From the NCBI RefSeq assembly GCF_030028105.1, contig NC_092374.1:163394432-163458431 (forward strand): DNA of 64,000 bases, read 5' to 3'. This stretch comes from Mobula birostris (taxonomy: Eukaryota). The notes below the pieces were generated by a model. It saw only the letters and a list, made by a program, of their open reading frames with translations, searched no databases and was not told where the DNA came from. Made by a program: the position numbers and the translations under genes. Positions 3,198-52,245 of the stretch are shown here, one piece after another. The stretch's first letter is position 1. Each line of letters begins with the position of its first letter.

Positions 3198-3903
3198 TGT
3201 CACAACTACAGACTCTGCTGCGGGGTTTATGCACCTCCCCAAGCAGCTGTGCTACAGATTCGGCAATTGCGCCCATGAAAGTGCACATTCCAGATGACAC
3301 ACATCAAAGTTGCTGGTGAACGCAGCAGGCCAGGCAGCATCTCTAGGAAGGGGTACAGTCGACGTTTCGGGCTGAGACCCTTATTCCTGACAAAGGGTCT
3401 TGGTCCGAAATGTCGACTGTACCTCTTTCTAGAGATGTTGCCTGGCCTGCTGCGTTCACCAGCAGCTTTGATGTGTGTTGCTTGACTTTCCAGCATCTGC
3501 AGAATTCCTCGTGTTTACATTCCAGATGATGATGGTTTTGTGAAGGCAGTATTTAACTCCCTTCTTTTCATTGTAGTCTTGTTGAGACTTGACCAAAAGC
3601 ACAGCAACCTTACACTTCCTGCTTATCCACATCATTGTCCAGGAAAGAGGGCTACCACTTCAACTGGCACTGGAAAGGAGCGGTAATCATTATGTATTTA
3701 GTCATTGCTTTCAGCTGCGGTGTTGGCATTTCACTTTCTGTTTGAGAGTTTCAGTTAATGGCCCTGTTGGCCTAATGTTTATTGTTTCTCCTTTCCTTTA
3801 AATTCTGCATCAGTTCTCATTAAAGTCAGTGAACTGTTGACCTGTTTCAGTGTCTCTCTCTTTCTCTCTCTCCACTCTTGGGCTATATCCAAAAGTTCTT
3901 ACA
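3198..3903 (+). mobile_element. Gypsy solo LTR related to the LTR at 47530-47980, interrupted by a mini-PLE
   Basis: Starts TGTCACAAC like 47530; shares 'cttgttgag.cttgac', 'gtttgagagttt' and 'cagttct.att' blocks; ends ...TTACA. Confidence 0.7.
3297..3516 (+). mobile_element. Non-coding fold-back mini-Penelope (pLTR only)
   Basis: Arm 3297-3382 is the inverse of 3393-3478; TSD ACATTCCAGATG(A) at 3285-3297 and 3517-3529. Confidence 0.85.
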
Positions 3904-6669: not shown

Positions 6670-7158
6670 AACGCAAACAAGAGAAAATCTGCAGATGCTG
6701 GGAACCCAAGAAACACACACAAAATGCTGAAGGAACTCGGCAGGCCAGGCAGCATCTATGGAAAAAGAGTACAGTCAATGTTTTGAGCTGAAACCCCTCG
6801 GCAGGACTGGAGAGAAAAAAAAGCTGGAGTAGATTTGAAAGATGGGAGGAGGGGAGAGAGAAACACAAAGTGATAAGAGAAACTTGAAGGAGGAGAGAAG
6901 AAGTAAAGAGCTAGGATGTTGAGTGGTGAAACAGACAGAAGGTCATGGAAGAAAGAAAAGAGAGGAGCACCAGAAGGGGGCAATCAGCAGGCAAGGAGAT
7001 AGGTTGAGAGAGGGAGAAGGGGATGGGAAATGGTGAAGGACTCGGGGTGGGGGCATTACCGGAAGTTTCAGAAATCGAACTTCATGCCTTCAGGTTGGAA
7101 GCCACCCAAATGGAATATAAGGTGTTGTTCCTCCAACCTAAGTGTGGCCTCATCATGA
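6670..7158 (-). mobile_element. 5'-truncated Penelope-like element (pLTR plus GIY-YIG C-terminus)
   Basis: Homologous to 11780-12271; degenerate hammerhead motif at ~6771-6809. Confidence 0.85.
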
Positions 7159-8919: not shown

Positions 8920-9735
8920 CAAAGTAAAAGCCGAAGTCACCAATGAGTTTATCATCATCTGTACAAGTACATGCATGCACAGTTGCAATGAAAATCTTAT
9001 TTGCAGCAGCATCACAGACACATAATATCAGACTTGAAGCATTCACAAAAAGAAAAACACTAATTAAAAATATTACCCACTTTTATTACTAGAAAGAACA
9101 CATTTAGAACAAAAACTACCTTTTAATTTAGTGCAAAATGATCAAAATGTCCATGGTGGTGCTAAACTCAGGGGATTAGGATTGTGCCAATTGGTTTAAG
9201 AACCAAAACGGTTGAAGGGAGGTAGCCGATTTTGAACCTGGTGGTGTGGCACCTCAGGCTTCTGTCCCTCATGCTTAATGGTAGTTTGAGAATACGGCAT
9301 GGCCCAGGTGGTGGGGATCTTTCATGTTGGATGCTGCCTTCTTGAGGCAGTAGATCCAGCAGGTACGACTGATAAGGGGAGGAATGTGTTATTGTTGAAC
9401 TGGGCTGATTCCACTCCTCTTTTAAAACCCAAACAACAGGAAATCTGCAGATGCTGGAAATTCAAGCAACACACAGCAAAGTTGCTGGTGAACGCAGCAG
9501 GCCAGGCAGCATCTCTAGGAAGAGGTACAGTCGACGTTTCAGGCCGAGACCCTTCAAGCAACACACATCAAAGTTGCTGGTGAACGCAGCAGGCCAGGCA
9601 GCATCTCTAGGAAGAGGTACAGTCGACGTTTCAAGCCGAGACCCTGCTGCGTTCACCAGCAACTTTGATGTGTGTTGCTCCACTCCTCTTTGCAGCTTCT
9701 TATATTCCAGTGCATTTAAATTGCTGTACCAGACC
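8920..9735 (-). mobile_element. Rex1/Babar LINE 3' portion interrupted by a mini-PLE
   Basis: 'ttgaacctggtggtgtggcacctcaggcttctgt' and 'ccactcctctttgcagcttctt..ctgtaccagaccatgatgca'. Confidence 0.65.
9423..9678 (-). mobile_element. Non-coding mini-Penelope: pLTR tip, tandem partial copy and inverted stub
   Basis: Direct repeat ~9462-9553 / 9555-9644; inverted stub ~9644-9678; TSD TCCACTCCTCTTT at 9410-9422 and 9679-9691. Confidence 0.85.
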
Positions 9736-10473
9736 ATGATGCAATCTCAACAATCAATTTTTATATCTATCCATTACAGAAAGGATAAATGTTACTACCA
9801 CTCAACCTATGAGGAAAATTCTGCATTCACACTGAAATACCCTCCATCATGTTAAATAGGACGAACTCTGAGAATATCTGTCAGCTCAGACAGGCACAAT
9901 GTGCGGTTGACCATCAGCAACATCAGAAACATACACCATAAAACCATAACACCATCAGACAGAGGAGCAGCAGTAGGCCATTCAGCCCATCAAGTCTGCT
10001 CCGCCATTCCATCATGGCTAACCCTGGATCCCACTCAATCCCATACACCTACATTCGCACCATATCCTTTGATGCCCTGACCAATCAGGAAATGGTTAAC
10101 TTCCACCTTAAATATACCCACAGACTCGGCCTCACTGCAATCTGTGGCAGAGCATTCCAAAGAGTTATGACTCTCTGGCTAAAGAAAATTCCTCCTTACC
10201 TCTGTTCTAAAGGGTTGCCCCTCAATTTTGAGGTTGTCCCCTCTATTTCTGGTTACCACCACCACAGGAAACATCCTCTCCACATCCACCCTAACTAGTC
10301 CTTTCAACATTCAGTAAGTTTCAATGAAATCCCCCTACATTCTTCTAAATTCCAGTGAGTACAGGCCTAATGCTCCTCACATGTTAACCCCTTCATTCCC
10401 AGAATCATCCTTGTGAATACTCACAACACACTGGAGGAACTCAGCAGGTCAGGCAGCAACCGTGGAAACGATG

Positions 10474-10508
10474 AGTCGACGTTTCAGGCCAGAACCCTCG
10501 TCAGGACT
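10474..10508 (-). ncRNA. Minimal type-I hammerhead ribozyme, core intact
   Basis: Minus strand AGTC-CTGACGA-GGGT(TCTG)GCCT-GAAA-CGTC^GACT: stem I 4 bp, CUGANGA, stem II, GAAA, palindromic ACGU helix III, GUC cleavage triplet. Confidence 0.8.
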
Positions 10509-10771
10509 GAAGAGGGAAGGGGCAGAGGCCCTATAAAGAAGGTGGAGCAGGGTGGGAAGAAGAAGGCTGGTAGGTCCAGTTGAAAAACCAGTAATTTGAA
10601 AGAAAAAGGGGTGGGGGAGGGGAAGCAGGGAGGTGATAGGCAGGAAAGGTGAAGAAGGAATAGCGGAAAACACAATGGGTAGTAGAAGGAGGTGGAACCA
10701 TGAGGGAGGTGATAGGTAGCTGGGGGAGGGGGTAGAGTGAAATAGGGATAGAGGAAGGGAGGGGGAGGGAA

Positions 10772-11374
10772 TTACCAGAAGTTGGAGAATTCTATGTTCA
10801 TACCAAGGGGCTGGAGACTACCTAGACGGTATATGAGGTGTTGCTCCTCCAACCTGAGTTTAGCCTCATCATGGCAGTAGAGGAGGCCATGTATGGACAT
10901 ATCTGAATGGGAATGGGAAGCAGAGTTGAAGTGGGTGGCTACCGGGAGATCCTGCCTGTTGTGGCGAATGCAGTGGAGCTCGACGAAGCGGTCCCCTAAT
11001 CTGTGTTGTGCTTTACCGATGTAGAGGAGGCCACACCGGGAGCACCGGATGCAATAGATGACCCCAACAGACTCACAAGTGAAGTGTTGCCTCACCTGGA
11101 AGGACTGTTTGGGACCCTGAATGGTAGAAAGAGAGGAGGTGTAGGGACAGGTGTAGCACTTACGCTTACAGGGATAAGTGTCGGGTAGGAGATCCGTGGG
11201 GCTGGATGTGTGGATCAGGGAGTCACGGAGGGACCGATCCCTGCGGAAAGTGGAGAGGGGTGGAGAAGGAAATATGTGCTTAGTGGTGGGGCCCTGTTGA
11301 AGGTGGTGGAAGTTGCGGAGGATAATGTGCTGGATCCGGAGGTTGGTGGGGTGGTAGGTGAGGACAAGGGGAAC
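10772..11374 (-). pseudogene. Penelope ORF C-terminus: Cys-rich linker plus GIY-YIG endonuclease (open frame, RT absent)
   Basis: VPLVLTYHP...CYTC...FTCESVGVIYCIRCSRCGLLYIG...RF.E...HFN...EQHLI..LGSLQP.GMN. Confidence 0.85.
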
Positions 11375-12141
11375 TACAAGGGGTACCCCTCTCGTTTTCC
11401 GCAGGGATCGGTCCCTCCACGACTCCGTTATCCACACATCCCTCCCCACGGATCTCCCACCCGGCACTTATCCCTGTAAGCATAAGTGCTACACCTGTCC
11501 CTACACCTCCTCTCTTGCCACTATTCAGGGCCCCAAACAGTCCTTCCAGGTGAGGTAACACTTCACTTGTGAGTCTGTTGGGGTCATCTATTGCATCAGG
11601 TGCTCCTGGTGCGGCCTCCTCTACATCGGTGAAACCCGACGCATATTGGGGGACCGCTTCGTCAAGCACCCCCGCTCTGTCCACCACAACAGACAGGATC
11701 TCCCGGTACCCACCCACGTCAACTCTGCTTCCCATTCCCATTCAGATATGTCCATACATGGCCTCCTCTACTGCTATGATGAGGCTAAACTCAGGTTGGA
11801 GGAGCAACACCTCATATACCGTCTAGGTAGTCTCCAGCTCCTTGGTATGAACATAGAATTCTCCAACTTCTGGTAATTCCCTCCCCCTCCCTTCCCCTAT
11901 CTCTATGCCACTTTGCCCCCTCCCCCAGCTACCTACCACCTCCCTCATGGTTCCACCTCCTTCTACTACCCATTGTGTTTTCCCCTATTCCTTCTTCACC
12001 TTTCCTGCCTATCACCTCCCTGCTTCCCCTCCCCCACCCCTTTGTCTTTCAAAGTGCTGGTTTTTTTCAACTGGACCTACCAGCCTTCTTCTTCCCACCC
12101 TCCCCCACCTTCTTTATAGGGCCTCTGCCCCTTCCCTCTTC

Positions 12142-12177
12142 AGTCCTGATGAAGGGTTCCGGCCCAAAACGTCGACT
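12142..12177 (+). ncRNA. Hammerhead ribozyme motif with G12->A, likely inactive
   Basis: AGTC-CTGATGA-A-GGGT(TCCG)GCCC-AAAA-CGTC-GACT. Confidence 0.7.
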
Positions 12178-12399
12178 CATCGTTTCCACGGATGCTGCCC
12201 GACCTGCTGAGTTCCTCCAGCATGTTGTGAGTGTTGCTTTGATCCCAGCATCTGCAGATTATTTTGTGTTTATCATCCTTGTGAATCTCCTCTGGTCCCT
12301 CTCCAACAACAAAATCTCCTTTCTGAGATATGGGGCCCATAACTGTTGACAGTACTTCAGATGCAGCCTGACTAGTGTCTATAAAGGCGCAGCATTATC

Positions 12400-15941: not shown

Positions 15942-16705
15942 TAATTGGCTTTGATGGTCCTGATCTGATATGTGAGGCATTGGTCCAGATTAAATTCTCA
16001 TTTATTATCAAGCATTTATTAATGACTTATGAACAAATCTTCAGAATTATTTGTGATCCATACATAAAACTAAATTGACCGTTGACTCTCAGGCCCAAAG
16101 GAGGTAAGGCTTGGGTCAGTGGAGATGTCACGTTGCAGAGAAGTCATATCCTACTCCAAGATACATTGGATTTCATGACATAGATTGCAAGTGATACGCA
16201 GAACACAGAACAGGACTACATAGAAACAAGCACTTCAGTCCACAATGTCTGTGCTGAGCATGATTCCAATTAAACTAATCTTATCTGCCTGTACATGATC
16301 CATTTCTCTAGACTCTTTGCATACTCATAAACCTGTTTAATGGTCTCCTGAACTCTGCTACTGTATATCTTCCCATTACCAACCCATTATAGGTATCCAC
16401 CTCCTTCTGTATAAAAAAACCTACTAGCATATCCCCTTTGAATGTTATTCCTCTCACTTTAAATGCATGCCCTCTAGTATTTGATATTTCTACACTCACC
16501 ATTTTATAAACTTCTACCTATTCTTTCCAAAGCCTATGGCACTCGAGAGAAAACAATCCACATGTGTCCAACCTCTCCTTATAGCAGCAATCCTATAATC
16601 AAGGCATCATCCTGGTGAAACCCTTTTGCACGTTTTCCAAAGCTTCCACATCCTTCCTCTAACGGGATGGCCAAAACTACACAGAATACTCCAAGTGCAG
16701 CCTAA

Positions 16706-17784
16706 GAGATAGGATCTATGGGCATTTAGAGAATTATGGTCTGATCAGGGACAGTCAGCATGGCTTTGTGAAGGGCAGATCGTGTCTAACAAGACTGATA
16801 GAGTTCTTTGAGGAGGTAACCAGACATATAGATGAGGGTAGTGTAGTGGATGTGATCTACATGGATTTTAGTAAGGTTCCACATGGTAGGCTTATTCAAA
16901 AAGTCAGAAGACATGGGATCCAGGGAAGTTTGGCCAGGTGGATTCAGAATTGGCTTGCCTGCAGAAAGCAGAGAGTCGTGGCGGAGGAAGTACAGTCGGA
17001 TTGGAGGGTTGTGACTAGTGGTGTCCCACAAGGATCTGTTCTGGAACCTCTGCTTTTGGTGATTTTTATTAATGACCTGGATATGAGGGTAGAAGGGTGG
17101 GTTGGCAAGTTTGCAGACGACACAAAGGTTGGTGGATTTGTGGATAGTGTGGAGGATTGTCGAAGATTGCAGAGAGGCATTGATAGGATGTAGAAGTGGC
17201 AGATGGAGTTCAACACGGAGAGGTGTGAGGTGGTACACCTTGGAAGGAAAAATTCCAAGGCGGAGTACAAAGTAAATGGCAGGATACTTGGTAGTGTGGA
17301 AGAGCAGAGGGATCTAGGGGTACATGTCCATAGATCCCTGAAAATTGCCTCACAGGTAGATAGGGTAGTTAAGAAAGCTTATGGGGTGTTAGCTTTCATA
17401 AGTCAAGGGATACAGTTTAAGAGTCGCGGGGTAATGATGCAGCTCTTTAAAACTCTGGTTAGGCCACACTTGGAGTACTGTGTCCAGTTCTGGTCGCCTC
17501 ACTATAGGAAGGATGTGGAAGCATTGGAAAGGGTACAGAGGAGATTTACCAAGATGCTGCCTGGTTTAGAGAGTATGGATTATGATCAGAGATTAAGGGA
17601 GCTAGGGCTTTACTCTTTGGAGAGAAGGAGGATGAGAGGAGACATGATAGAATTAAACAAGACATTAAGAGGAATAGATAGAGTGGATAGCCAGCGCCTC
17701 TTCCCCAGGGCACCACTGCTCAGTACAAGAGGACATGGCTTTAAGTTAAGGGGTGGGAAGTTTAAGGGGGATATTAGAGGAAGG
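16706..17784 (+). mobile_element. 5'-truncated CR1 LINE (RT domain); orphan 3' tail at ~18911-18943
   Basis: QHGFVKGRSCLT, SGVPQGSVL, KFADDTK, VRPHLEYCVQFWSP, YSLERRRMRGD; tail 'ctctatgttctatgttcta'. Confidence 0.95.
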
Positions 17785-18910
17785 GGCTGTTCCCCTGAAA
17801 TGATCCCCCTGGCACTGCAAGCAATTTAGCTGCCCTCCCAGCCAGAGAAGATACACTGAAAGCTTTCCCCAATCTCCTGACACAGGTATGGAAAGCCCCC
17901 CAGGCGCTGCATTTTACCTCCAGTCGAACCAGATGCATTTTCCCCCGCTTTCAGATAACTGGCAGCTGTCACTGCAGGGTAATTGAACCTGACAGTCCTA
18001 ACACCGTCAACAGCCCGCCTACTCAAACTTTCAACCAATCCCTGTCGCTCTTCCTCAGCCGAGCACTGCCACTCATCTAACAACTGAGAGATCCGCTCCG
18101 CCCACGTCTCGTACGCCTCCACCCCTCTAGGGGTGGACAATATCCCAAAAGCAAGGCAAAGCCTAACATAGCTGGAACGTTTATTTGTAGACACTACCTC
18201 CAACTCGTCAGCGCAAGTCTGAATTCGGACAAATACCCCACCCAACACGCATGCAGTAATAACCAGCAATCCCACAGAGACACACATTACTAACCGCAAT
18301 CCCACAGAGAGACAGCAGCACTGATTTAAACAGGGCAATCACACAGAAGACGACTGAATCCAATCCTGGACAAAGCCCCCACTGTAGCTCCTGGTAAGCC
18401 TCAGGCTCGCTCAACTCACTTTCGTCTAGGGGAAGCAGCCTTTGGCCCCACCAAACTGGGTAATCAAGTTTATGTGGATGCTGTGGGATGTACCCCACCC
18501 CGGCAAATAACAGACAATACACCACATGCGATTAAATGATAACAATTTATGGATATTACTGGAACTATGTAATTAATAGAGATAAGATATAAAAAGAAAG
18601 TAAAAGGCACCAAACTTATCAAAGTTCAACCACTTCATTCACAACAGTTGGAGCTCAAGTAACGGGGTCCTCTTTCCACCACTCGGTCCCCTCCGACCAC
18701 CTCGACCTGCCGCCTGGGACCAACCATGGTGATCGACCAGATGCTCCACATGAGTCTGTCTTCGCCTCCTCTCCTCGCCGAAGACCCTGGGCCTCGGACT
18801 CCCGCTCAGGGTCTGTCCCGTTGGCCGGCTTACAGCATCGTGTCCACTCTCTCTGTCCCCATCGCGCATTCTGCCCCAAAGCCTGCGCAACACAATAGCG
18901 TACAGACACA
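17785..18910 (-). mobile_element. Gypsy LTR retrotransposon fragment: partial 5' LTR (18383-~18910), PBS and PNMA-like gag
   Basis: gag '[38 protein letters not shown]'; LTR ends ...GCTACA, then PBS. Confidence 0.75.
18363..18381 (-). promoter_or_regulatory. tRNA-Pro primer-binding site (degenerate)
   Basis: TGGGGGCTTTGTCCAGGAT versus canonical TGGGGGCTCGTCCGGGAT, 1 nt after the LTR end. Confidence 0.75.
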
Positions 18911-19990: not shown

Positions 19991-22044
19991 TAGTCTCATC
20001 TGGAGATCAATGGTCATTTCCGTAAGGGGCCAGAGGCCAAGCAATGAACATGAAATTGAAGCCAGCACATAGAAGAGGTTGAAGAATGTAAGTGTTAACT
20101 GAAAATAAATCCAAACATGGGGGTATCACAGTGCGATGGGCTGCAGGATTCTACTTTGTTCCTGACCTAGGATCAGCTGAAGATAACAAAAACGGAATAA
20201 CCCAGCCAGTCACGCAGCAATTGTGGAAAGAGAAATCATTTCATGTTTTGGATCAGCTACCCTTCCTTAAACAAACAGCTTAAAATAATCCCTCGAGAGA
20301 AGAACAAATGGTAGTTGGACCATTCTCAAGTCAGTGTTATTGGAAGTGAGGGGAAGGACACATCCTCTCGTTCCCGATCATATCCCATCAATACAAAGCT
20401 ATTTCCTTGAAGCAATTTAACTACATTCAGTGCCTTGATCAAACAAAAAGGTATAACTTGTGACATTCATGCTTTGTGCCTACAATGAGGTAGCTGCATT
20501 AGCTCCAGCCAAGAAACAGTGCCTAAATGATGCCTTGCAAGAATTTAACTTCACTGAATGGATTTTCACTCTTGGTTTACAAAGCATAGGCAGGGTAAGA
20601 AGTGTAGAGAAAAGATACACCCGGCACAAATGGCAGCTTTTATTTTGAATGAGTTGGCCAAAAAAGAAACTTGTTCTAAATTCCATGGTGGTTTTGGGGT
20701 TATTGATTGTCTTTCACAGAACTAAACAGAGATTGCTAATATCAGGGTTACTCGACATCTATTCCTTATCCATTTCTAAATAGTTCTTGACTGTTGTTCC
20801 TTAAGTTCAGTCTAATTTTCCATTTCTCGAATAGACCTATTAAAAAATAAATGGCTCGACACCACTGTCATACCATTTCAAACCTCTGCAGCAGTGAATG
20901 ATTTAGTTGAGTTTGGCAATTGATCTTAATTTTTTAAACAGTTTCCAATTTATTGTGAAACCAAAGCAATTCCCACATTTTAAAACATTAATGCATTTGG
21001 ATGGAGTTCCAAACCATGTAACAATGCAATCAAGGTTGTGTGGAATTCACTGGAGCCTTATGGAGGTAATAGCACCTAACAATCTAAGGTCAGCTGTGAA
21101 CCATATTAGTTGTGCTGATCTATTATAGTTTGTCAGATAAAATGTGTGTCGATTTAAGTGAAGGATATGGGTCTGGAAGCATTTTGGGGTAATTTTCACT
21201 CTGATAGCTTGATTTATATGTGCATAAAGTGATGACATAATACTCATGAGATATGCATGTAATTTATCAACACACAGCCAGATGAAACATGGAAATGCTA
21301 CATAACATGCAGTATAGATGGAAAAATAATGATAAACTGCATCTTTAACACTGGCTATCTAGTTGATCTACAACACAGCACTTGTTACCACGACTTTTTA
21401 GGTTGTGTGAGTATTATTTTGATATTATGAAAGAAAGTAGGAAATAAATACAATTCTTTGAAAAAGTGGTTATAATTTTATTCCCAGCATATTAAGTTTG
21501 GCTTCAGAAAAAGGAAGAGCATGGATTTGTGAAACAGAAAATAGAAGCAGTATTTTTTGGGATCCGAAGATTTAGCAAAGGAAGCAAGTGGATTAATTAG
21601 AAGTTCAAGAAAAGCACCACTGAGCTATCAATGTCAGATAGAGAATTCCATGCATTAAAGGCAATCACACTAGGAAAAAAAACAGCATTTGGATTTGAAT
21701 TAGATTTCTCTAGGGCTTGAACATAATACTGAAGGAAAGGAAACATGAAACAACTGGCTTTTGGGAATGTTTTGGCATTCAAGGCCTGAAGTACGATATC
21801 TGTAAAAGTGTTAAAGAAAGACGATGAAATCGAGATTGAGAGGAGCTTTAATTGAAAAATTCAAAGAATATTGAGCTGCTGTCTCTCAGCCACAGAGACT
21901 CAGGTCTGACCTGGACTTAAAACTACCAACTGCATGTTCTCCCTGTAATCACCTTGATTTCTCAAAAGCTTCTGGTTTCCTTTCTCTTCCAAAGACATGA
22001 GGGTTAATAGATTAATTGATCAATGTAAATTCCTCTAATGTATA

Positions 22045-24731
22045 TGGTACCTTGAAAAAGTATTCAGCCTCCAACCATTTGTTCATGTAAATGAGTATAC
22101 AACCAGGGATTTTGATCAATCCAACTGAGAATTCTTATTTGTGAATCACATGCTCCCTTTTTCACAGTGGAACACAAAAAAAAGGAAAATTGTAAAACAT
22201 GAAAAATTAAAAATCCAAAAACTGAAATGTCCGCAGTTCAAAAGTATTCATCCCCCTTTGCTTAGTACTAGGCAGTGGTCTTTTGAATAAGTCTCTATTA
22301 GCTTTGCACAACATGATACAGCAAGATTTGTCCATTCCCCCTTGCAAAATTACTGAAGCTATGCCAGGTGAGTTGAGGAACAGTGACATACAACAATCTA
22401 GATGTCTTGCCAGAGATGTTCAGCTGGTTAAGGACAGGACTCTGACTGGGTCACTCAAGGGCATCAACTTTCTTCATTTGAAGCCACTCCATGGTTACCC
22501 TGGTAGTGTGATTTGGGTTGTTGTCCTGCTGTAGGACAAACTTCCTCCCCAGTTTAAACTTTCTTCTAGAAGCTAGCAGGTTTTTATCCAGGATCTCTCT
22601 GTATTTAGCAGCATTCATCTTCCAATCAATCCTGATCAGATTTTCTGTCCCTGCTGCTGAAAAGCAACCCCATGGTATGAGGACTACCTCCACCATACTT
22701 TACAGTATTAATGATGTTATCTGGCTGATGCAATTATTTAAGCCACACCTACCACTTAATGTTGAGGCAAATAGTCTTATCTGACCACAAGACCTCCTTC
22801 CACATCTTTACAGTGCCTTCTTAGTGATTCTTTGCAAAGTCTTTAAAGACATGATTTTTTTAGCCAGCTCTTCTTCCTTGCCTCTCTTCCATAAATACAC
22901 TTGTTGTGCAAGGCCTTAGAGATTGTGAAGCCATGAACTTCATCTCCAGTTGCTGCCACTAACTTCTGCAGCTTGCTCACAGTAGCCTTGCTTTCAAGTG
23001 CTATTCTTCTCTGGCAACTATATTTAGTGGGGCAATTTGACATGGGCTGTGAGGTTTTGGTTTATTATTTTTTTTCCACTTCTCACCATGGATTGCACTG
23101 AGCTCTGAGGTATAATCAATGCTTTGAGATGGTCCTGTACCCTTTCCCAGTTGTGTGCTTCTCCATTACAAATACATATGTCAGGATGCTGCTGGTCAAT
23201 ATAAAAACCTACTGTGTGTCAGGATGTTGTCTATTGACTACAGATCAGCCATCATTCTTACAGTCCTGATTGAAATACTACCAAACCTGGGGCTTTGTAC
23301 CTCCCTCTCCAACTGGATCCTCAACTTCCTTAGTGAAAGATCACAATGTGTGTGGATTGGAAATAGCATCTCCACCTCACTAACAATCAACACCGGCTCT
23401 CCACAGGGATGCGTGCTCAGCCCATTGCTCTACTCTCTCTACACCCATGACTGTGTGGCTCGGCCCAGCTCAAATGCCATCTGTAAATTTACTGATGATA
23501 CAATCATTCTTGGCAGAATCTCAGATGGTTACAAGAGTACGTACAGGAGTGAGATATACCAGCTAGTTGAGCGGTGTCACAGCCACGACCTTGTATTCAA
23601 TGTCAGTAAGACCAAGTAACTGATTGTGAACTTCAGAAAGGGTAAGACAAGTGAACACACACACACCAGTCCTTATAGAGGGATCAGAAGTGGAGAGAGT
23701 GAGCAATTTCTAATTTCTCTGTAATACCACTGAGGACCTAACCTGGCCCCAAAATATTGATGCAGCTATAAAGAAGGCAAGACAGCAGCTATATTTCATT
23801 AGGAGTTTGCAGAGATTTGGTATATCACTTAAAACACTCAAAAATGTCTACAGATATACCATGGAGAGTATTCGGACTGGCAGCAACACTGTCTCATTAG
23901 GGTGGGGTGGTGGGCTACAGAACAGGATTGAAGAAAGCTGCAGAGAATGGTAAAATTAGTCAGCTTCACATGATGGATTCTAGCCTCCATAGTATCCAAG
24001 ACATCTTCAAGGAGCGGTACCTCAAAATGGTGGCGCCCATCATTAAGGACCCCCCACCACCCAGGACATGCCTTCTTCTCATTGTTACCATCAGGAGGGA
24101 GGTACAGAAACCTGAAGCCTCACACTCGGCGATTCAGGAACAGCTTCTTCTCCTCTGCTGTGCAATTTTTTGAATGGACATTGAAACCATGAACTCTACC
24201 TGACGACTCTTTTATTTTGCACTACTTATTTAATTTAACTATTTGATATTTATATGCTGCAAAGTTAAGAAATTTCACAATGTATGCTGGTGATATTAAA
24301 CCTGATTCTGCTTCTGATTATCATTTCCCTGACTTGTCTCGAATGTTCTTTAATCCTCATTTTGATTTGGTCTACCATATCATTGGGCCTTAAAGAGAAA
24401 GGGGGCATTTATTCTGATGAGTTCATTGAGGACATGTTATTGTGCAGTTTTCTGTATGAACAAATTGGGTAAGTTGGTAAAGTAATACTGTACCTGAGGA
24501 AGGTTAGCATCATAATTACAAAGGGGGTGAATACTTTTTCAGCCTCACATTTTGGCTTTTAATTTTTAGTAATTTTTTTTCAGACTTTTATTTTTTGATT
24601 TGATTTGACATGATGCATAGTGTTTTGTAGATTAGCTCAAAAATTCTGCTACAATATATTTTAAATTTAGAAAATGAGACAGTAAAAATGTGAAATTAGT
24701 TGTCAGGGCTGAATACTTTTTCAAGGCACTG
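22045..24731 (-). mobile_element. Tc1-family DNA transposon (IR/DR type), transposase pseudogene
   Basis: Ends (TGGTA)CCTTGAAAAAGTATTCAGCC and GGCTGAATACTTTTTCAAGGCACTG flanked by TA; inner DRs at ~22240 and ~24523; 'WGCFSAAG..MNAAKYREIL..QQDNNPNH'. Confidence 0.92.
23180..24318 (+). mobile_element. 5'-truncated Rex1/Babar LINE inserted in Tc1
   Basis: '[27 protein letters not shown]'; tail 'cctgattctgcttctga'. Confidence 0.9.
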
Positions 24732-25300: not shown

Positions 25301-28300
25301 TCTATGATTAATAGGAAAGTCTTATTTCCTATATCACAAGTACATTTGGAGAGCTTTGTAATAAGGTAAAACGTGAAAGGGTTAGAGGGGAGTTGAAGAA
25401 AAATAACTTCAACCAAACAGTGGAGGACTGTTCACAGTGAGGGAGGCAGCCTGAAACTGCAGAGAGATCATGATGTGTCAGTCAAATGGGTTGAAAACTT
25501 GCAGATGGAATTTAATCCAGACTAATGTCGTGATGAATATTCACTTTCCAGGGCCTGAGAGGCTTACTGCTAAACTCAGTTTTCTAACACAGCAACATGA
25601 CCTTTCCAAACGGCCAGAGTTGTTGTTAATAACGTCATTTTTTTTAGCAAATATTCTTTGCTCAGCTGTTTGTTGTAAATAAGAACCAGTCCCCAGTTCT
25701 TAATATAAATTGCAAGGAGCAAACAGTTTGTAGTTGCGGGGACAACTTTACAAAGCAAGGTGACAAAGATACAGGTCCCCATTAGCCAAATGCAAGACAA
25801 TGGAGTTATGTCACTTAGCACATCAAAGGTGGCTACAAGTTGGGATGCTTATGTACTCAGCCCTCACAGTAATAATTGTGGATGTTTCTGATCCCTGTCA
25901 CCAGAAGCTGTTAAGACCATTGGTATGAATTACTCTGTTCTAGGAAAGGTATCTGGAAAAATTCATATGTAGATGATGTCATCAAATAGAAAATAGCATA
26001 AATAACATCAGAATTTGGGGATTGTTAGGAATGACAAGAATAAAAAAGTGACAGGAAGATGGGGTTACAGAAAGAGATAGAATTCATTCCTCAACCTTCG
26101 ATTCCTATGACAGACAAGTCATTCATCTGCAACTCATTGGCATGTTCATAACAATTGTGTGTTGTGTAGTTTGTAAACCTTTTGTAATCTGGTAACCTTT
26201 CATAAATTAGAAATCCTCTGTGAGTGTTAAATGTGCTTTAAGAATTATTTGTCTGAATTTAAAGAATATCGTAACATTAAAAATAAAATATCTGTATTTA
26301 AACTACTTTGTTAATTGGAAGAATCTCCTACTTGGTAGGGAGGGAAGTATCTATGACTGAAGCAGTGAGTATTGGCAGCTAAATCTCATCACATAGACAT
26401 ATCATACATGGTTCCAATCACTGGAGGCACCAGTGTCCTCCAGGTGTCAATGATCCTCTTCCCCTGATTATTAGTTGGTTACTTTCACCTGTGTCCTGTT
26501 TTAGTTATCAGTGCACCTGTGCCATGTTTTGCTTCCCTATTTAAGTTCCCTCTATTTTGTTTGTCTTTCCTTAGTCTTGAGTTCATCTATCCTATGAGCA
26601 GTGATGTGTGAATCTTACAAATCAGCCCTCCAGTAAAATTCTTCATTCAACTCCATCCTCATCTCTGGTTTCCTCTGCATTTGGGTACACCTGATCTATT
26701 TCTGAACTTGCTGTCCATGGGTCAAAAACATGGGACTTCACCATAGCAACCATGGTTCAACCCAGCCTGGCAACCATCATTGTGACAGCAAGACTGAGTG
26801 ACAATGTGGATCCAGCAGAGTATAGGCATCTCTCATCAGTGCTGACTCGCCAGGAAGTCATGATAAGTGGTCATGAGCACGTACTCTGGCAGATTATGGC
26901 TGCCCTGCGGACGCTCAGCGAGATCAGCCCACAGAGTCAGCAACCCCTTTCTGCCATGTTGAGTCTCCCGAGTATCTGGACTTGATGGCAACTGAGCAAT
27001 TTAATGGCAACCCAGAGATCCGTAGTGGGTTTCTTATTCAGTGTTCTCTAGCTTATCAGCTGCATCCCAAGTTCCCTTCCAACTGCTACAATATAATCAA
27101 TGTTCTCTCTCTTTGCTCTTGCACAGCTCTCACCTGTGCTATGGTGTTCTAGGAAAAGAACTATCTGACAAATCTCTGTTTGGCAGGGAGAAGAGGAGGG
27201 GTTATGACCAACCAGTTAGTGGAAAAAAGGCAGCCAACAGACTCTTCCAACCTTGTCAGGTACCCATAGCATGGTAGACTATGCAATTTAGTTCGGCACG
27301 CTGGAGAAAGAGAATACTGAAGTCCTTATAGCCATGTTCCACCATAGACCATCAGGTGAAATTAAAGATGAATTGACACCCAGAATCACTGTTAAAGATC
27401 TTGAGACTCTCATCATTACGTCCATCCACGTTGACAATCATCTCCAGAAGAAAGTGCCACAGTGAGTCCATTAGGGTTGCCAGTCTTCAAGCCCCTCTGA
27501 CCTCATCAACCTTGGTACAGTCATCCACACAAAACCCCACCTCCATGGATCCCCTCAAATGGGACAGAGAATAAAGGGAAATTGCTTTCTCCACTGTTGT
27601 GGGCTGGGCCTTTTTTTTTGCCTGTCCTGAGCTGTTGGGAAAACATCCAGACCAGTCCATGGAAGGGAGGTCTGTGATGGGTTCCACAATTCCTCCGAGG
27701 CCTGTTACATCCAGTTTATGCTGACTACCTCCACCTCCTGGGGCAAACATTAACATGCTCTTGAAGTCTTGGAGGATTCTAGTGCAGCAGGCAATTTCAT
27801 GGACCTCAGGTTAACAACAATCTTCGAGTGCCCCCGGACCATGTCATGCAACTGGACATGGCTATGGCTCTGGATGGAAGACCTTTGGGCTCTGAGATGA
27901 TCCACCATCTCAATGGTCCCCTCTGAACAGCAGAAGAGCATACTAAGACTATCCAGTTTCACATTATCCATCCTCGTGAGTTCCATTTGATATTAGGACA
28001 CCCTGATTAGCCTCCACGACCCACAAATTGGCTGGTCCACTAGTGCACTCCACAGATGGAGTTCTCATGTTAGGCTGCCTGTCCACCTATCTCTTCCAAA
28101 CTGTTCCAACTTCCTCTGAGTTTATAAACCTGCTAGAGGTTTTTAGTAAGAAAAAAATCACAACACTTCCACCTCATTGTACCTATGAGTGCCCAATTGA
28201 ATTGCTGCCTGGAACCTGTCTGCCCTGAGGAAGACTATACTTCCTGTCAGCTCCAGAATGGATTGCCACAGAGGAGTACATCTGTGATGTCTTGGCATTG

Positions 28301-31300
28301 AGTTTCATTTGCCCCTCCACATCCCCTGTTGGTGCGGGCTTCTTCTTTATGGCAAAAAAGGATGGTGGACTTCAACTATGTACAGATTATCAAGGCTTCA
28401 GTAAGATCACAGTGAAGAACTGGTACCCCTTGCCACTGATGACCATGGCTTTGGAGTTGCTGCAATGGACAACCATCTTTATTAAACTGGATCTCAGAAA
28501 TGCATACAACCTGGTCTGCATTCAGGAGGGTGCTGCACAGAATACTGCTTTTAACATCCCCACTGCCCACTATGAATATCTCGTAACGCTGCTCGGTTTG
28601 CTCAACATCCCAATGGTCTTCCAGGTCCTTCTGAGAGATGCTAAATCACCTTGACTTCATTTATCTGGATAATATACTAATCTCTTACAAGAGTTGCCAT
28701 GAACACATCCAACATACTTGATGGGCCCTTCAATGTTCACTCGAGAACCAACTGGAAAAGAGTGAGTTCCACCTCCTGTCTCCTTCCTTGGGTTCACTGT
28801 CTTGAAGGGGATCTGCAGATGGACCATAGTAAGACCCAGGACTTCAGGGATAGGCCACAGCCCATTATGATCAAGCAGGTCCAGCCCATTCTGTGGTTTG
28901 CTAATTTTACCAGAGGTTTATCTGCAACTTCACTTCCATCACAGTACCTCTTGCTGCTCTGTCTGAGGAAACCTCCAGCCCATTTTGCTGGATCCCAAAA
29001 CCCAAGGTAGTTTTCCAAGAATTGAAATGTCACTTCACATCAGATTCTGTCCTTATTATCCCTGACCCAGAGCTGCTGTTCATTGTTGAAGTAGATGCCT
29101 CACATGGTGGGTTTGTGGCCATTCTCTCACAAAACCCCTGTCTGACCAGAAACTCCTTCCCTGTGTTTTCTTCTCCTGGCAACTCTCACATGCAGAGAGG
29201 AATTACGATATATGGAACAGAGAGCTGTTAGCAGTCAAATTATCCTTGGAGGAGAGAAGACGTTGGCTACAGGGGGCCAAACATCTATTTGTGGTCTGGA
29301 CCGACCTTAAGAGCCTAGCCTATTTTCAGGAGGCAAAGTGTTTAAATTCGCACCAAACTCAGCGGTCTCTCTTTTTTAACTGTTTTGAATTTTATCATCA
29401 CCTGAAAACCCCGAAACCAGATGAGTGCGCCAGTCAGTCTGAAAAACTAGACCTGGCCTATGTCCCAGAACCCACCCTCCCGAGTTCCAGGTGGGTGGCA
29501 CTGGTACAAATGGAGATTGAGACCATTGCCAGAACACAACAGTAGAAAGCAGACCCAGGGGACAGCCCACTTGGTTGCATTTTTATCCCTAACTCTGTCC
29601 ATTCAGATGTGTTACAGTGGGGGCATGCATCACGTAATGCAGGGCACCTGGAGACCGCTTGAATGGTGGAGTTCATAAAGAGGCGGTCCTGGTAGCCAGG
29701 CATTGAAGGGGATGTTAAATCACACATGGAAGCCTGTCACATCTTTACACAAAACAAGGAACCCAGATCATAGTCATCGGGCTGCTACACTCAGTGTCAT
29801 TCTTTCCTGTGCCTTGTTTCATAACTCCCCTATCTATGCCTCTCATAATCTTGTAGACCTCCATCAAGTCCCCTCTCATCCTTCTACGTTCCAAAGAGAA
29901 AAGTCCCAGCTCTGCTAACCTTGCCTCATAAGACTTGTTTTCCAATCCAGGCAACATCCTGGTAAATCTCCTCTGCACCCTCTCCATAGCTTCCACATCC
30001 TTCCCATAATAAGGTGTCCAGAACTGAACACAATACTCTAAGTGTGGTCTCACCAGAGATTTGTAGAGTTGCAACATGACCTCTCTAATCTTGAACTCAA
30101 TCCCCCTATTAATGAAGCCTAGTATTCCATAGACCTTCTTAACTATCCTATCAACCTCTGCAGCGACCTTGAGGGATGTATGGATTTTAGAACCCCTAGG
30201 TCCCTCTATTCATTCACACTCTTAAGTAACCAACCATTAACCCTGTACTCAGCCTTCTGGTTTGTCCTTCCAAAATGCATCACCTCACACTTATCCAGAT
30301 TGAACTCCATCTGCCACTTTTCTGCCCAACTCTGCATCCTGTCTATATCCTCTTGTAACCTTCGACAACCTACATCTCCATCCACAACTCCTCCAATCTT
30401 CGTGTCATCCGCAAACTTACTCTCCCGTCCTTCCGCCTCTTCATCCAGGTCATTTATAAAAATCACAAAGAGCAGGGGTCCCAGGACAGATCCTTGTGGT
30501 ACTCCACTAATCACCGACCTCCAGGAAGAAAACTTTCCTTCCACTACTACCCTCTGCTTTCTTCCTTTAAGCCAATTTTTATCCAAACAGCCAAGGTTCC
30601 ACTGATCCCATGCCTCATGACTTTCTGGATGAGTCTCTCGAGAGGGACCTTGTCAAATGCCTTGCTAAAATCCATGTAGACCACATCTACCACCCTACCC
30701 TCATCAGTTTATTTTGTTACCTCTTCAAATAACTCAATTAGGCTCGTGAGGCATGACCTTCCCTTCACAAAGCCATGTTGACTATCCTTGAGTAGACTGT
30801 CCTTCTCCAAGTGCTTGTAGATCCTATTCTTAAGAATCCTTTCCAATAGTTTGCAGACCACTGACGTAAAACTCACTGGTCTGCAGTTCCCAGGGTTCTC
30901 CCTATTACCGTTTTTTAACAAGGGAACTACATTTACCATTCTCCAATCCTCCAGCACCTCCCCTGCAGCGAAAGAGGATTCAAAGATCATAGCTACTGCT
31001 CCAGCGATCTCTTCTCTCACTTTCCACAGCAACCTGGGGTATATCACGTCTGGTCCTGGGGACTTATCAATCTTGATGTTTTTAAGAAGATCCGACACTT
31101 CTTCTTCCTTAATCTCCACATTGTCCAGCACACAGGCCTGTCCTATTTCGACCTCACCCTGATCAAGGTCCTTTTCACATATGAATACTGAAGCAAAGTA
31201 TTCATTTAGGACCTCCCCAACCTCCTCCGCCTCCAGGCACACGTTGTCTTCTTTATCCTTTAGCGGCCCCACATTCATTCTTGTCATCCTTCTGTTCTTC

Positions 31301-31570
31301 ACATACGCATAGAACGCCTTGGGGTTCTCCTTAATCCTACATGCCAAGACCTTCTCATGCCCCCTTCGAGCTCTCCTAAGTTCTTTCTTAAGCTCCTTCC
31401 TGGCTACCCTATATTTCTCATGAGCCTCTCCTGCTTCCTGCTTCTTATATCTAACATATGCTTCCTTCTTCCTCTTGACGAGTTGCCTCATGTGTTTTGT
31501 CAGCCACGGTTCCCTTTTCCTACCATTTTTTCTTGTCTCAGTGGGACAAACCTAACCTGACCCAGCACAA

Positions 31571-31729
31571 CAACAGGAATTCTGCAGATGCTGGAAATTC
31601 AAGCAACACACATCAAAGTTGCTGGTAAACGCAGCAGGCCAGGCAGCATCTGTAGGAAGAGGTGCAGTCGACGTTTCAGGCTGAGACCCTTCATCAGGAC
31701 ACGTTTACCAGCAACTTTGATGTGTGTTG
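31571..31729 (-). mobile_element. 159-bp non-coding mini-Penelope with inverted stub
   Basis: TSD CCTGACCCAGCACAA at 31556-31570 and 31730-31744; stub at 31702-31729. Confidence 0.9.
31667..31700 (-). ncRNA. Minimal type-I hammerhead ribozyme, core intact (stem I 3 bp)
   Basis: GTC-CTGATGA-A-GGGT(CTCA)GCCT-GAAA-CGTC^GAC. Confidence 0.75.
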
Positions 31730-32184
31730 CCTGACCCAGCACAAGTGGTCTCTAAACTTCCTCCACATTACTTCTGTGCTTTCACCCTTGAACATCTGTT
31801 TCCAATTTACTCTCGCTAGTTCCTGCCTCATCTCTTCATAGTTAGCCTTTCCCCAGTTAAGCACTTTCCAATTTTGTCTGTTTTTATCCTTTTTCATAGC
31901 TATGCTGAAGCTAAGGGAGTTGTGGTCACTCTCACCAAAATGCTCCCCCACCAAGAGGTCTGCCACCTGATCAGGTTCATTACCCAGAACTAGATCCAGT
32001 ATGGCCCCTTCTCTCGTCGGCCAGTCCATATACTGTATCAGAAATCCTTCTTGACCACACCTGACAAATTCAGCCCCATCTATCCCCCTTGCAGTCAGGA
32101 GGTGCCAGTCAATATGAGAGAAGTAGAAATCACCCATAACTACAACACTGTGTTTCCAGCACCATTCTAAAATCTGCTTATCAG

Positions 32185-32530
32185 CTGTACCGTCCTTGCC
32201 GGCAGAAGTGAAAGAAAGCTCAGACAGCCCTGCTGAAGGCCTCTCTTGCAGCAACAGTGGCATGCTGGCCAAGCTGGCCATTCGCTGGTCAAGGGCTCTG
32301 CTCGAGCTGACGGCCTGCACCTCTTCTGGGGCTACATCCATGCCAGGGTGATCTTAGAGGGAGCGTGCAATCATTATGGGTTCAGTGAGAGATTTCCAGG
32401 AACGGTGCCCCCCCACACCTTGAGTGAATTGAGTGCATTATAGACACTAATTACTGTATTTTAATTTGAATTCCTTTGTGTGTCTTTTGTATTTCAATGA
32501 AGTTTTGTACTTCCCTTTAAAAAAGAAACA
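32185..32530 (+). mobile_element. Tx1-like LINE 3' end
   Basis: 'LAKLAIRWSR..LHLFWGYIHARVILE..FQER' ORF2 C-terminus, then T-rich UTR and A-rich end. Confidence 0.6.
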
Positions 32531-33082
32531 CAGCAACATGCCTAACCTTCAAAGGCAGCTGGGGTCTTCATTTCATTCTGGTCAAAGGACCTGGCTATCC
32601 AGCAATGACCTTTCTCTGCGGGTTGAGCCTCAGGAAATGGCATCACACTACATCGGGCCATTCGAGGTTCTCCATCAGATCACCCGAGTCACTTATTGTC
32701 TTCAGTTGCCATACACAATGCGTATCAACTCCACCTTCCCTGACTCGCATCTAAAACCTCTTCTGTGTAGTCCACTCACGCCAGCCCCAAGACCTCTCCT
32801 GACCTTTGGCATAATCGACGGTCGGCCAGTATACACTGTCCATTGGCTTCTGGACTCCGGTCTGGTTGCAGTACCTGGTGGATTGGAAGGGTTATGACCC
32901 AGGATAGAGGTCATAGATTGCCTCCCGTGACATCCTAGACCCGAATCAGAGACTTTAACTGTCACCACCCGGATCATTCTAGGCCATCAAGTGCCAGCTG
33001 TACAGGGGTGGGGGAGGCTGCCATGCTTCAGTCTGATCACTGGGGCTCCCCTATTAGTAGCTGATTATTTTCAGCCGTGCTT

Positions 33083-34065
33083 TGCAACACACACAAACTG
33101 CTGGAGGAACTCAGCAGGCCAAACAGCATTTATGGAAAAGAGACGGTCAACATTTCAGGCCAAGATACTTCAGCAGGACTGGAGGAAAAAAAAAAGATGA
33201 GGACTAGAGTTAAAAGGTGGGAGGAGAGGAAGGAGAGCACCAAGGTGATAGGTAAAACCAGGTGGGGGGAGGGCAAAGTAAAGAGCTGGGAAGTTGATTT
33301 GTGAAAGGAATACAGGGCTGGAGAAGCGGGAGTTTGATAGGAGAGAACAGAAGGGTATGGAAGAAAGAAAAGGTGAGAGGAGCACCAGAGGGAGGCCATG
33401 GCCGACCAGGAGATAAGATAACAGAAGGAAAAAGGGATTGGGAATTGTGAAGGTGGGTGGGTGGGGGTGGGGGTGGAGGCATTACCGGAAGTTCGAGAAA
33501 ATGATGTTTATATCAACAGGTTGGAAGCTACCCAGACAGAATATAAGGTGTTGTTCCTCCAACCCGAGTGTGGCCTCATCGCAACAGTACAGGAGGCCAT
33601 GGATTGACATATCGGAATGGGAGTGGGAAGTGGAAATAAAATGGGTGACCACCGGGAGATCCCATTTCTTCTGGCGAACATAATATAGATATTCCGCTAA
33701 GCTGTCTCCCAATCTACGTCAGGTCACACTGATATACAGGAGACCACACCGGGAGCACTGAACACAGTCTATAACCCCAACAGACTCACAGGTGAAGTGT
33801 TACCTGACCTGGAAGGACAATTTGGGGTCCTGAATAGTAGTGAGGGAGAAGGTGTAGAGGCAGTTGTAGCACTTGTTCCGCCTGCAAGGATAAGTGCCAG
33901 GAAGGAGATCAGTGGGGAGGGATGAATCGACAAGGGAGTCGCATAGGCAGTGATCCCTGTGGAAAGCAGAGAGTTGGGGGGGGGGGGAAGGAAAAATGTG
34001 CTTGGTGTTGGTTGGGATACCATTGGAGATGGTGGAAGTTCCACAGAATTATGTACTGGACAGGA
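33083..34065 (-). mobile_element. Penelope-like element fragment (GIY-YIG plus pLTR lacking the terminal tail)
   Basis: 'DLPVVTHF..SDMSIHGLLYC..EEQHLIFCLGSFQP'; degenerate hammerhead motif at ~33143-33181. Confidence 0.88.
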
Positions 34066-39914: not shown

Positions 39915-40980
39915 AACCACCGCTGCTGCCTTCAACCATATATCCTCAAACTTGGACATCTACACTCATCCCACCTTACCACTGCCTTAACAGGAATAGA
40001 GTTCCTCTTGTCTTCACCTACCACCCCATGAGGCTTTGCATCCAACAAATCCTTCTCTACAATTTTTGCTATCTTCAATGGGACCCTAGAAGCAAACACA
40101 TATTTACTTCACTCCTCTCTGCTTTCCACTGGGATCGTTCACTCCATGATTCCCTTGTCCATTTATCCAGCTGCACTAATCTCTCTCCTGGCACATATCA
40201 CTGCAAGCAACAGATATGCTATACTTGCCCATTTATCTCCTCCATTAATTCCATTCAGGGCCCCAATTCAGTCCTTCCAGATGATGCAGTACTTCACCTG
40301 TGAATCTGTTGGGGCTGTCTATTGTGTTCAGTACACCAGATGTGACCTCCTCTACTGGGATGAGACCTGACATAAATTGGAGACCGCTTTGTTGAGCACC
40401 TCTGCTCCATCCGCCAAAATGGAAATTCCCAGGGGCCAAAGATTTAGATTCCTATCCTCAATCCTATTTTGAAATGTTGGTCCATGACCACCTCTATTGC
40501 CAGAATGAGGCCACTGTCAGGTTGGATAAGCAACACCTAATACTATGTCTGGATAGCCTCCAACCTGATTGCGTGAACGTCGATTTCTCCTTACGGTAAA
40601 AAAAAATTACACCCCCTTCACTCATCCTCTATTCCCCACTCCAGCCTCTTACCTCTTCTCCTTATTTGCATATTACCTTCCCCTAGTGCTCCTCATTCTT
40701 CCCTTTCTCCCATGGTCCATTCTCCTTTCCTATCATATTCTTTCTCCTCCAGCCCTTTACCTTTCACCTGGCTTCATCTATCACCTTCTAACTATCTTCC
40801 TTACCCTCTTCACACCTTTTTATTCTGGCGTCTTATCACTTCCTTTCCAGTCCTGAAGGGTCTCAACACAAGATGTCAATTGCTTGTTAATTTCCGTGGA
40901 TGCTGCCTGACCTGCTAAGTTCCTATAGCATTTTGTGTCTGTTGTTTTAGATTCCCAACAACTACAGAATCTCCTGTGTT
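39915..40980 (+). mobile_element. 5'-truncated Penelope-like element
   Basis: 'RVPLVFTYHP', 'FTCESVGAVYC'; pLTR with degenerate hammerhead motif at ~40848-40880. Confidence 0.88.
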
Positions 40981-44850: not shown

Positions 44851-45157
44851 AATCCACCCAGTACACAGTCTGCAGAGGAGCAGAGGCAGGTGGGACACAT
44901 GCACCTATCTCAGGAGGAATGCAGTTTCCTGCCTCTACTGTCACTACCCAGGACACTTCCAGGCATCGTGTCCCAAGTGTCCAGTGAAAAAGGATACCAA
45001 CCAGCAGGAAGGTGAATTCTGAAGGGTGGATTCTCCCGGCAACCATCTTCCCCTAATCGGGCAAAGCTCCCAGCTTCCTTGTTGTGGGGATCTCAGACCC
45101 ATGAGTTTCAGGCATTTACTGACTCTGGGGCAACTCGGAATCTCACGGATATCTGAC

Positions 45158-46116
45158 TCAGCAGGTCAGGCAGCATCAGTGGAAAAGATCAGTCGACATT
45201 TTGGTCCGGAACCCTTCGTCAGGACTGTAGAGGGAAAGGGGCAAAGGCCCTATAAAGAAGGTGGGGGGGAGGGTGGGAAGGAGAAGGCTGGTAGGTACCA
45301 GGTGAAAAACCAGTAAGGGGAAAGATAAAGGGGTAGGGGAGGGGAGGCAGGGAAGTGATAGGCAGGAAAGGAGAAGAAGGAATAGGGGAAAGCACAATGG
45401 GTAGAAGAAGGAAGCGGAACCATAGGGAGGTGATAGGCAGCTGGGGGAGGGGGCAGAGTGACATAGGGATACAGGAAGGGAGGGGGAGGGAATTACCGGA
45501 AGTTGGAGAATTCTATGTTCATACCAACGGGCTGGAGACTACCTAGACAATATATGAGGTGTTGCAGACAGACAGGATCTCCCAGTAGCCACCCACTTCA
45601 GCTCTGCTTCCCACTCCCATTCAGATATGTCCATACATGACCTCCTTTACTGCCATGATGAGGCTAAACTCAGGATGGAGGAGCAACACCTCATATACTG
45701 TCTAGGTAGTCTCCAGCCCCTTGGTATGAACATAGAATTCTCCAACTTCCAGTAATTCTCTCCCCCTCCCTTCCTCTATCCCTATGTCAGTCTGCCCCCT
45801 CCCCCAGCTGCCTATCACCTCCCTCATGGTTCCGCCTCCTTCTACTACCCATTGTGTTTTCCCCTATTCCTTCTTCACCTTTCCTGCCTATTACCTCCCA
45901 GCTTCCCCTCCCCCACCCCTTTATCTTTCCCCTTACTGGTTTTTCACCTGGAACTGACCAGCCTTCTCCTTCCCACCCTCCCCCCACCTTCTTTATAGGG
46001 CCTCTGCCCCTCCCCCCTACAGTCCTGACGAAGGGTTCCGGCCCAAAACGTCGACTGATCTTTTCCACGGATGCTGCCCAACCTGCTGAGTTCCTCCAGC
46101 GTGTTGTGAGTGTTGC
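45158..46116. mobile_element. Fold-back Penelope (minus arm 45158-~45565, plus arm ~45569-46116)
   Basis: Arms are mutual reverse complements; hammerhead motifs at 45190-45227 (-) and 46020-46057 (+), both with G12->A; no TSD. Confidence 0.88.
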
Positions 46117-52131: not shown

Positions 52132-52142
52132 TAAATGTTTGC

Positions 52143-52245
52143 AACCAGTCCAGATTAAGGATTTCAACCCAAAATGTCGACTGTTGATTTCCCTCCATAG
52201 ATGCTGCCTGACCTGCTGAGTTCCTCCAGCATCCTGTGTGTTGTT
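52143..52245 (+). mobile_element. Penelope pLTR fragment
   Basis: 'cagtccagattaagg..aaaatgtcgactg..gatgctgcctgacctgctgagttcctccagca'. Confidence 0.8.

Follow-up and report, generated by a model that had tools for sequence, protein, structure and literature searches.

A hammerhead-like motif lies on the minus strand at positions 10474-10508 of the 64,000-nucleotide stretch of the Mobula birostris genome analysed here (the window). Is it a ribozyme, which element brought it there, and does it cut where it stands? With a probability of about 85%, we read the motif as a minimal type-I hammerhead from the pseudo-LTR (pLTR) of a Penelope-like element (PLE), likely of the Neptune type, and the copy itself as a passenger, likely inert, of an inverted insertion truncated at its 5' end.

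The focal hammerhead and its copies in the window

The focal copy is composed of the 5' strand of helix I (AGUC), the box CUGACGA, the stem II strands GGGU and GCCU around the loop UCUG, the GAAA box, CGUC and GACU. Both core boxes are intact. Helix I has 4 bp (3-6 bp in other copies) and is open-ended, as in type I. Stem II has four pairs, one of them a G10.1·U11.1 wobble (U11.1 at 10486), and the palindrome ACGU is followed by C17 and GACU. The bulged A that typically follows A9 in this family is deleted. From hammerhead numbering, we take the predicted cut to fall between 10478 (C17) and 10477. A pyrimidine tract at 10505-10530(-), with AG at its end, runs into the 5' strand of helix I and resembles a splice acceptor; the same arrangement is found in all four subfamilies of the element. 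A scan of Rfam returned no hammerhead family among 13 matches at E<=10. The identification thus rests on the structural descriptor, its controls and the published consensus. Rfam matches to mir-2 correspond to inverted pLTR tails and were discarded as false.

An nhmmer profile built from 106 natural copies was searched in the window and in the reversed window. It found 18 hammerhead copies in the former (17 strong and a weak one at 20195-20267) and none in the latter. All 16 sites listed by an earlier reading of the sequence alone (the sequence-only reading) are among these 18. The core boxes CUGANGA and GAAA..UH are intact in four copies (10474, 31667, 55283 and 53580), and the full structural descriptor is passed by two of the 18, 10474 and 31667. 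The sequence-only reading had called the core intact at 10474, 31667 and 55283; this holds for the boxes of all three, but the full descriptor retains only the first two, stem II of the third having decayed. Its GCCC-GAAA form has to be given up for the window, where no intact-core copy has G10.1-C11.1 and 10474, 31667 and 55283 all carry U11.1 (GCCU-GAAA or ACUU-GAAA).

The second descriptor-passing copy, 31667-31700(-), belongs to the CTCG/TTAG subfamily. It carries U11.1, is 5'-truncated with a helix I of 3 bp, and has an inverted tail upstream. The copy at 55283-55320(+) is older. Its core boxes, palindrome and helix I are intact, and its decayed stem II keeps three consecutive pairs, one of them Watson-Crick. 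At 53533-53617(-), the core boxes are present in a decayed copy that has lost the palindrome and helix I. Other decayed copies recognised by the profile are located at 6714-6815(-), 33088-33186(-), 40843-40940(+), 47984-48064(-), 48632-48733(+) and 52142-52241(+).

Some sites are small composites of pLTR tails. At 3297-3484, two tails form a tiny inverted pair whose junction lies inside the hammerhead, and site 3385 is made of two inverted copies. At 9463-9678(-), two tandem tail fragments truncated inside the hammerhead are accompanied by an inverted tail piece. Short inverted insertions of this kind, made of the pLTR tail only and with the junction inside the ribozyme, are found at both places, at 31600-31733 and at several loci sampled elsewhere (L002, L004/L005, L022, L029). 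They form long hairpins and could be ADAR or Dicer substrates if transcribed.

The inverted insertion and its parent element

The focal hammerhead is carried by the left arm (10416-11261(-)) of an inverted PLE insertion. This arm contains the 3' end of the ORF, a 269-nt pyrimidine-rich spacer, the hammerhead and a short tail. The right arm (11385-12271(+)) is 92% identical to it, the matching part being 11385-12235(+), and has a longer tail. Its hammerhead, at 12142-12177(+), carries G12->A, a CpG decay, and is predicted to be inactive. The insertion is bordered by 15-bp target-site duplications at 10404-10418(+) and 12272-12286(+). The pair with its clean duplication seems to sit in what we take to be an older LINE fragment. 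A stop-to-stop frame at 10772-11467(-) encodes a C-terminal PLE fragment with a CxxxCxxC linker, reading CKRKCYTC, and a GIY-YIG endonuclease (PF01541, E 0.021, below the curated cut-off). The same type of linker is found in a full-length copy, L048. The focal arm is about 90% identical to the full-length copies L158 and L145, the former a member of the focal subfamily. The arrangement of the insertion, with the longer tail confined to the right arm, fits the PLE anatomy given in PMC8557442. A second divergent inverted pair of the focal subfamily, at 45156-46116, is built like the focal insertion; its two hammerheads, 45190(-) and 46021(+), both carry G12->A. Predicted folding of the RNA of the focal insertion, read from either strand, gives 88-90% paired nucleotides, with the sense ribozyme buried in a duplex of about 850 bp. 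In this truncated inverted setting, the model suggests that the focal copy likely does not cut, and the locus likely has no function.

Full-length relatives contain a pair of same-strand hammerheads, spaced about 3.5 kb, that flank an ORF of about 1,016 codons with reverse transcriptase (RT) and GIY-YIG domains. A hammerhead is present in both pLTRs of L048, L146, L147, L158, L159 and others. L146 has a single ORF of 1,016 aa (GIY-YIG E 8.7e-5, RVT_1 E 6e-4). Homologues of the ORF carry PF00078, PF26215 and PF01541, and the closest named protein is from Chiloscyllium punctatum (71%). The predicted cut site precedes the ATG by about 122-141 nt. Therefore, a cut in each pLTR would set free a unit that includes the whole ORF.

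The element resembles the Poseidon element PAc of Anolis carolinensis (Frangieh et al. 2024, PMC11167929) in its pLTR hammerhead, its tail at one end and its RT with a C-terminal GIY-YIG domain. In contrast, the PAc cut is 26 nt inside the ORF, not upstream of the ATG as here. An ORF starting inside the ribozyme, as in PAc, was considered and rejected for this family, on account of the conserved ATG beyond the cut and of an upstream frame that is not kept between subfamilies. A further difference from Poseidon is the cysteine linker, absent there and present here. With Neptune-clade PLEs (Craig et al. 2021, PMC8557442), the family shares a CX2-5CxxC linker before GIY-YIG, partial tandems, inverted 5'-truncated copies, a one-sided tail and a pLTR hammerhead. 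The linker lies between the RT and endonuclease domains both in the window frame and in L048, and copies form partial tandem or inverted structures with a one-sided tail, divergent neighbours accounting for 37 of the 78 pairs within 2 kb. Nematis elements share a zinc-finger-like motif of the linker (PMC8557442), which leaves a Neptune assignment no more than likely, from the linker rather than from a tree. Since the linker fits, the protein sequence suggests that the element is likely of Neptune type rather than Penelope or Poseidon proper. The name Penelope given by the sequence-only reading is kept for membership of the PLEs and probably has to be dropped in its narrow sense.

Abundance and conservation of the ribozyme

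Random stretches of the genome contain 191 copies in 910 kb, that is 210/Mb. Extrapolated to the 4.01-Gb genome, this gives about 0.84 million copies, mostly decayed. The 18 copies of the window compare with 13.2 expected from the random stretches (first 510 kb; Poisson P=0.12), and the suggestion that the motifs are very dense here gives way to a density at genome background. PLE-derived sequence accounts for about 6% of the random sample, against 10% in the window. The structural descriptor gave 26 matches in the 910 kb, versus 0 in the reversed and 0 in the complemented control. Across the genome, 43,073 exact copies have an intact core, the palindrome and paired helices: 31,083 with U11.1 and 11,990 with C11.1, with no match in the controls. 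G10.1-C11.1 is found in three subfamilies; the dominant lineage has instead G10.1·U11.1, as the focal copy. The bulged A permits an alternative A-U register of stem II in the U11.1 form, as in an older family. Passages of PMC6155905, PMC6765202, PMC2837043 and PMC544870 give no cleavage rate for G10.1·U11.1.

Minimal hammerheads (min-HHRs) have been described in the Neptune, Poseidon and Xena PLEs of fish (Cervera & De la Pena 2014, PMC4209133). The present motif has the same features as the metazoan PLE min-HHRs of that work: type I, no loop 3, a palindrome at 15.2-16.2, a bulged base between 9 and 10.1, a helix I of 4-5 bp, a location in pLTRs and mostly dispersed truncated copies, often in inverted pairs. 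It differs by a stem II of 4 bp, versus 7-8 in Schistosoma, and by its commonest intact form, which has G10.1·U11.1 rather than the conserved G-C pair. The proposal made from the sequence alone, that PLE pseudo-LTRs carry here a minimal type-I hammerhead whose helix III is a loop-less ACGU, is supported. The class is known from fish PLEs since 2014 (PMC4209133), and we describe here a further family of it. No cartilaginous fish is named in the text portion and the two supplementary files of PMC4209133 that were searched. Searches of publications on Penelope elements with hammerheads in sharks, and on Penelope elements in elasmobranchs, yielded no description of this family. PMC4209133 gives about 4,000 copies for coelacanth and 9,000 for Xenopus, against 43,073 exact intact copies here, the descriptors being different. 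With these copies and about 0.84 million relics, this genome has the largest hammerhead load among the counts that we have seen, with the same proviso that descriptors differ between studies.

Non-LTR retrozymes (Li et al., bioRxiv 10.64898/2026.07.22.740005) also contain type-I hammerheads derived from PLE pLTRs, and PLE-derived retrozymes are reported there in one chondrichthyan genome. They form head-to-tail tandem arrays, whereas the copies of the window are dispersed or are inverted truncated PLE ends. Head-to-tail repeats with complete hammerheads were not found in the window; its sole tandem pair, at 9463-9678, has no 5' core box.

Conservation was analysed with 89 copies chosen by protein match or at random. 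Seven unclassified copies were left out, leaving 82 in four subfamilies; in three copies no ribozyme was found. Between the most distant pairs of subfamilies, net divergence is 0.05-0.07 for the 34-nt ribozyme, versus 0.37-0.45 for the upstream spacer (shuffle baseline), 0.43-0.58 for the 12 nt that follow the ribozyme and 0.17-0.19 for the ORF (third codon positions 50% identical). With a ribozyme that diverged by 5-7% and neighbouring sequence by 37-58%, the alignments indicate that the ribozyme was under selection in active elements. The core, which the sequence-only reading expected to stand out from the flanking pLTR, is far more conserved between subfamilies. Majority states differ between subfamilies only at two positions of loop II and at 11.1, and the difference between CTCG and TCCG loops noticed earlier is confirmed. 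In each of the four subfamilies the core boxes form the majority state, G8 being tied 9:9 in one of them. The bulged A between 9 and 10.1 is present in 79 of the 82 copies, and helix III is the loop-less palindrome ACGU across subfamilies.

The decay of CpGs gives a second view of selection. One and the same CpG yields the 31,083 U11.1 copies and 3,042 copies with G12A, U11.1 being ten times commoner. This imbalance argues that active masters passed on U11.1 but not A12. The U11.1 change may nevertheless be a single event, hence weak evidence of selection taken alone. In 110 random copies, the other CpGs of dead copies decay symmetrically, with both C>T and G>A at 15.2/16.2 and at 17/1.1; position 7, which is free to vary among older copies, is U45/C43/A20 and position 8 is G102/A5. 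Genome-wide, 3,231 copies carry G8A. In the subfamily with a 195-nt spacer, G8A is present in 9 of 18 copies, mostly from contig C33, and these look like segmental duplicates. Near-identical full-length G8A copies (L065-L067, L075, L078-L083, L085, L086, L091) crowd that contig between 13 and 37 Mb, suggesting segmental amplification. In the focal subfamily (271-nt spacer), 11 of 26 copies have U17 but lack a G>A counterpart at 1.1; these may form a sub-lineage whose cleavage triplet is GUU.

Note that the block 15-50 nt beyond the cut shows conservation too, its net divergence being 0.23-0.25 over 55 nt; protein binding rather than catalysis could thus explain some of the constraint. A conserved structure 3' of the cut is not supported: the search gave one 8-bp helix with no compensatory changes, in an alignment with two of eight rows out of register. 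A family with a covariant AGCU/AGCU helix I, hinted at by two decayed copies, had no exact match and was abandoned.

Cleavage, insertion templates and competing readings

In a tandem transcript of an active element, two motifs would pair via ACGU:ACGU and swapped helix I strands, probably assisted by the element's protein. Cutting at GUC^ would free a unit-length RNA containing the whole ORF. Reverse transcription would begin in the tail 3' of the ribozyme and usually stop early, so that almost every insertion would deposit a hammerhead. Deposited copies would then be killed by CpG decay, because G8, G12 and the palindrome lie in CpGs, and inverted pairs would fold into long duplexes. A lone copy is predicted to form an inactive rod, with G5-A6-Y7-G8 paired with C15.2-G16.2-U16.1-C17. 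For the double hammerhead, the predicted stability falls 5.5-11.9 kcal/mol short of that of two locked monomers (5/5 copies; secondary structure only). This agrees in direction with the inactive monomers of published work (PMC4209133, PMC11167929). In PMC4209133, min-HHR monomers are inactive and dimers weakly active, and processing of tandem precursors was proposed; dimer cleavage is also reported by Lunse et al. (RNA Biol 14:1499, as cited in PMC6765202). The Anolis PLE hammerhead cuts only with the element's protein (PMC11167929). From the published work and the folding models we infer that the ribozyme is latent and likely protein-assisted, with active tandem elements making use of it and dispersed copies being inert.

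Cleavage is dispensable for insertion in vitro and no RNA-seq ends were found at the cut site in the Anolis work (PMC11167929). Of 45 ORF-start copies in our sample, 32 continue across the cut site and none begins at it; the other 13 were not scored as continuing. Genome-wide, 321 matches have their 5' end at the cut (about 856 once degenerate letters are corrected for), whereas a +3 control gave 181 (about 322). Microhomology where inversions join confounds this 2.7-fold excess, which was measured against one control site: 25 of 30 inspected starts are inversion junctions, at least 12 of them, by eye, with 3-4 nt of microhomology. No start at the cut site was found among 161 local copies. The genome thus gives no clear sign of cleaved RNA as insertion template, and its record fits uncut templates and re-ligated circles alike. 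The 0/45 count and the dominance of the G10.1·U11.1 lineage are the small points that are new here.

Tentatively, and with more doubt than conviction, the ribozyme may be seen as a protein-gated switch tuned down during the expansion of the family. In the dominant lineage, G10.1·U11.1 would weaken or re-register stem II and C7 would lock the monomer rod, to be opened only by the element's protein. If so, the in vivo question of whether insertion is ever templated by cleaved RNA could be put to the copy record. The in vivo role of PLE hammerheads is an open question according to PMC8557442 and PMC11167929, to which this family can bring its young full-length members, its four subfamilies and insertion ends in the hundreds of thousands.

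If the motif were maintained as a signal (for binding or folding) to the element's protein, or as a component of an internal promoter or splice acceptor, cleavage would be incidental. We consider this unlikely. It would account for insertion in vitro without cleavage (PMC11167929), for the lack of ORF-start copies beginning at the cut (0/45), for the non-canonical 10.1-11.1 pair of the dominant lineage and for the pyrimidine tract ending in AG over the helix I 5' strand in all four subfamilies, as at the intron end of D. virilis Penelope (PMC4209133); here, as has been noted for that element, splicing at such an AG would change helix I. However, lineage changes hit positions that hammerheads tolerate (N7, loop II, the 11.1 wobble, U17 in 11/26 copies of the focal subfamily) and no catalytic base. 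In an older family, stem II and helix I also carry compensatory changes of both partners (a few cases, among the first 100 matches listed). As to splicing, for an intron that begins at the ORF stop and ends at the AG ahead of helix I, the one spliced junction that we guessed had 0 genomic matches, a point against the splice-acceptor version; PLEs retain introns, however, so that such splicing may still take place. Contigs of three presumed-RNA runs and one unlabelled run cover the pLTR and carry no information on ends, strand or level; no GT..AG joint was seen among the 15 joints listed, out of 41.

It is much less probable still that dispersed same-strand copies pair up in long host transcripts and cut pre-mRNA, an effect on host transcripts of the kind that the sequence-only reading had suggested. 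The 43,073 intact copies and the shared minus strand of 10474 and 31667 would provide the material. However, these two stand 21 kb apart, most copies are dead, and the nearest partner of the focal copy is on the opposite strand and carries G12A. The predicted deficit of 5.5-11.9 kcal/mol for the double hammerhead and the burial of the focal copy in a duplex of about 850 bp also argue against such cutting, as does the symmetric CpG decay, which gives no sign of protection. No host exon was found among the 98 window frames scanned, which gave only transposon domains and one weak RING match, in a scan that short exons escape.

Chance resemblance to a hammerhead, for which only the silence of Rfam speaks, is refuted by the descriptor (26 matches versus 0 and 0 in controls), the conservation between subfamilies, the thousands of genome matches versus 0 for control patterns and the published pLTR position, and we give it virtually no weight.

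Other mobile elements share the window with the PLE copies. At 57778-62583(-), a broken LINE, which we take to be L1/Tx1-like, contains an RT domain (RVT_1 E 8.8e-11) and, separately, an ORF1-like frame. Decayed pieces of LTR retrotransposons, Gypsy-like by content, with RT, RNase H, SH3 and chromo domains, are found at 28229-29545(+), 46217-47582(+) and 32451-32897(+). LINE fragments (RT, endonuclease, zinc knuckle) and a Tc1-type transposase fragment occupy 16663-17829(+), 29745-32353(-), 42505-44728(-), 55679-56996(+), 62886-63934(+) and 22846-23061(-).
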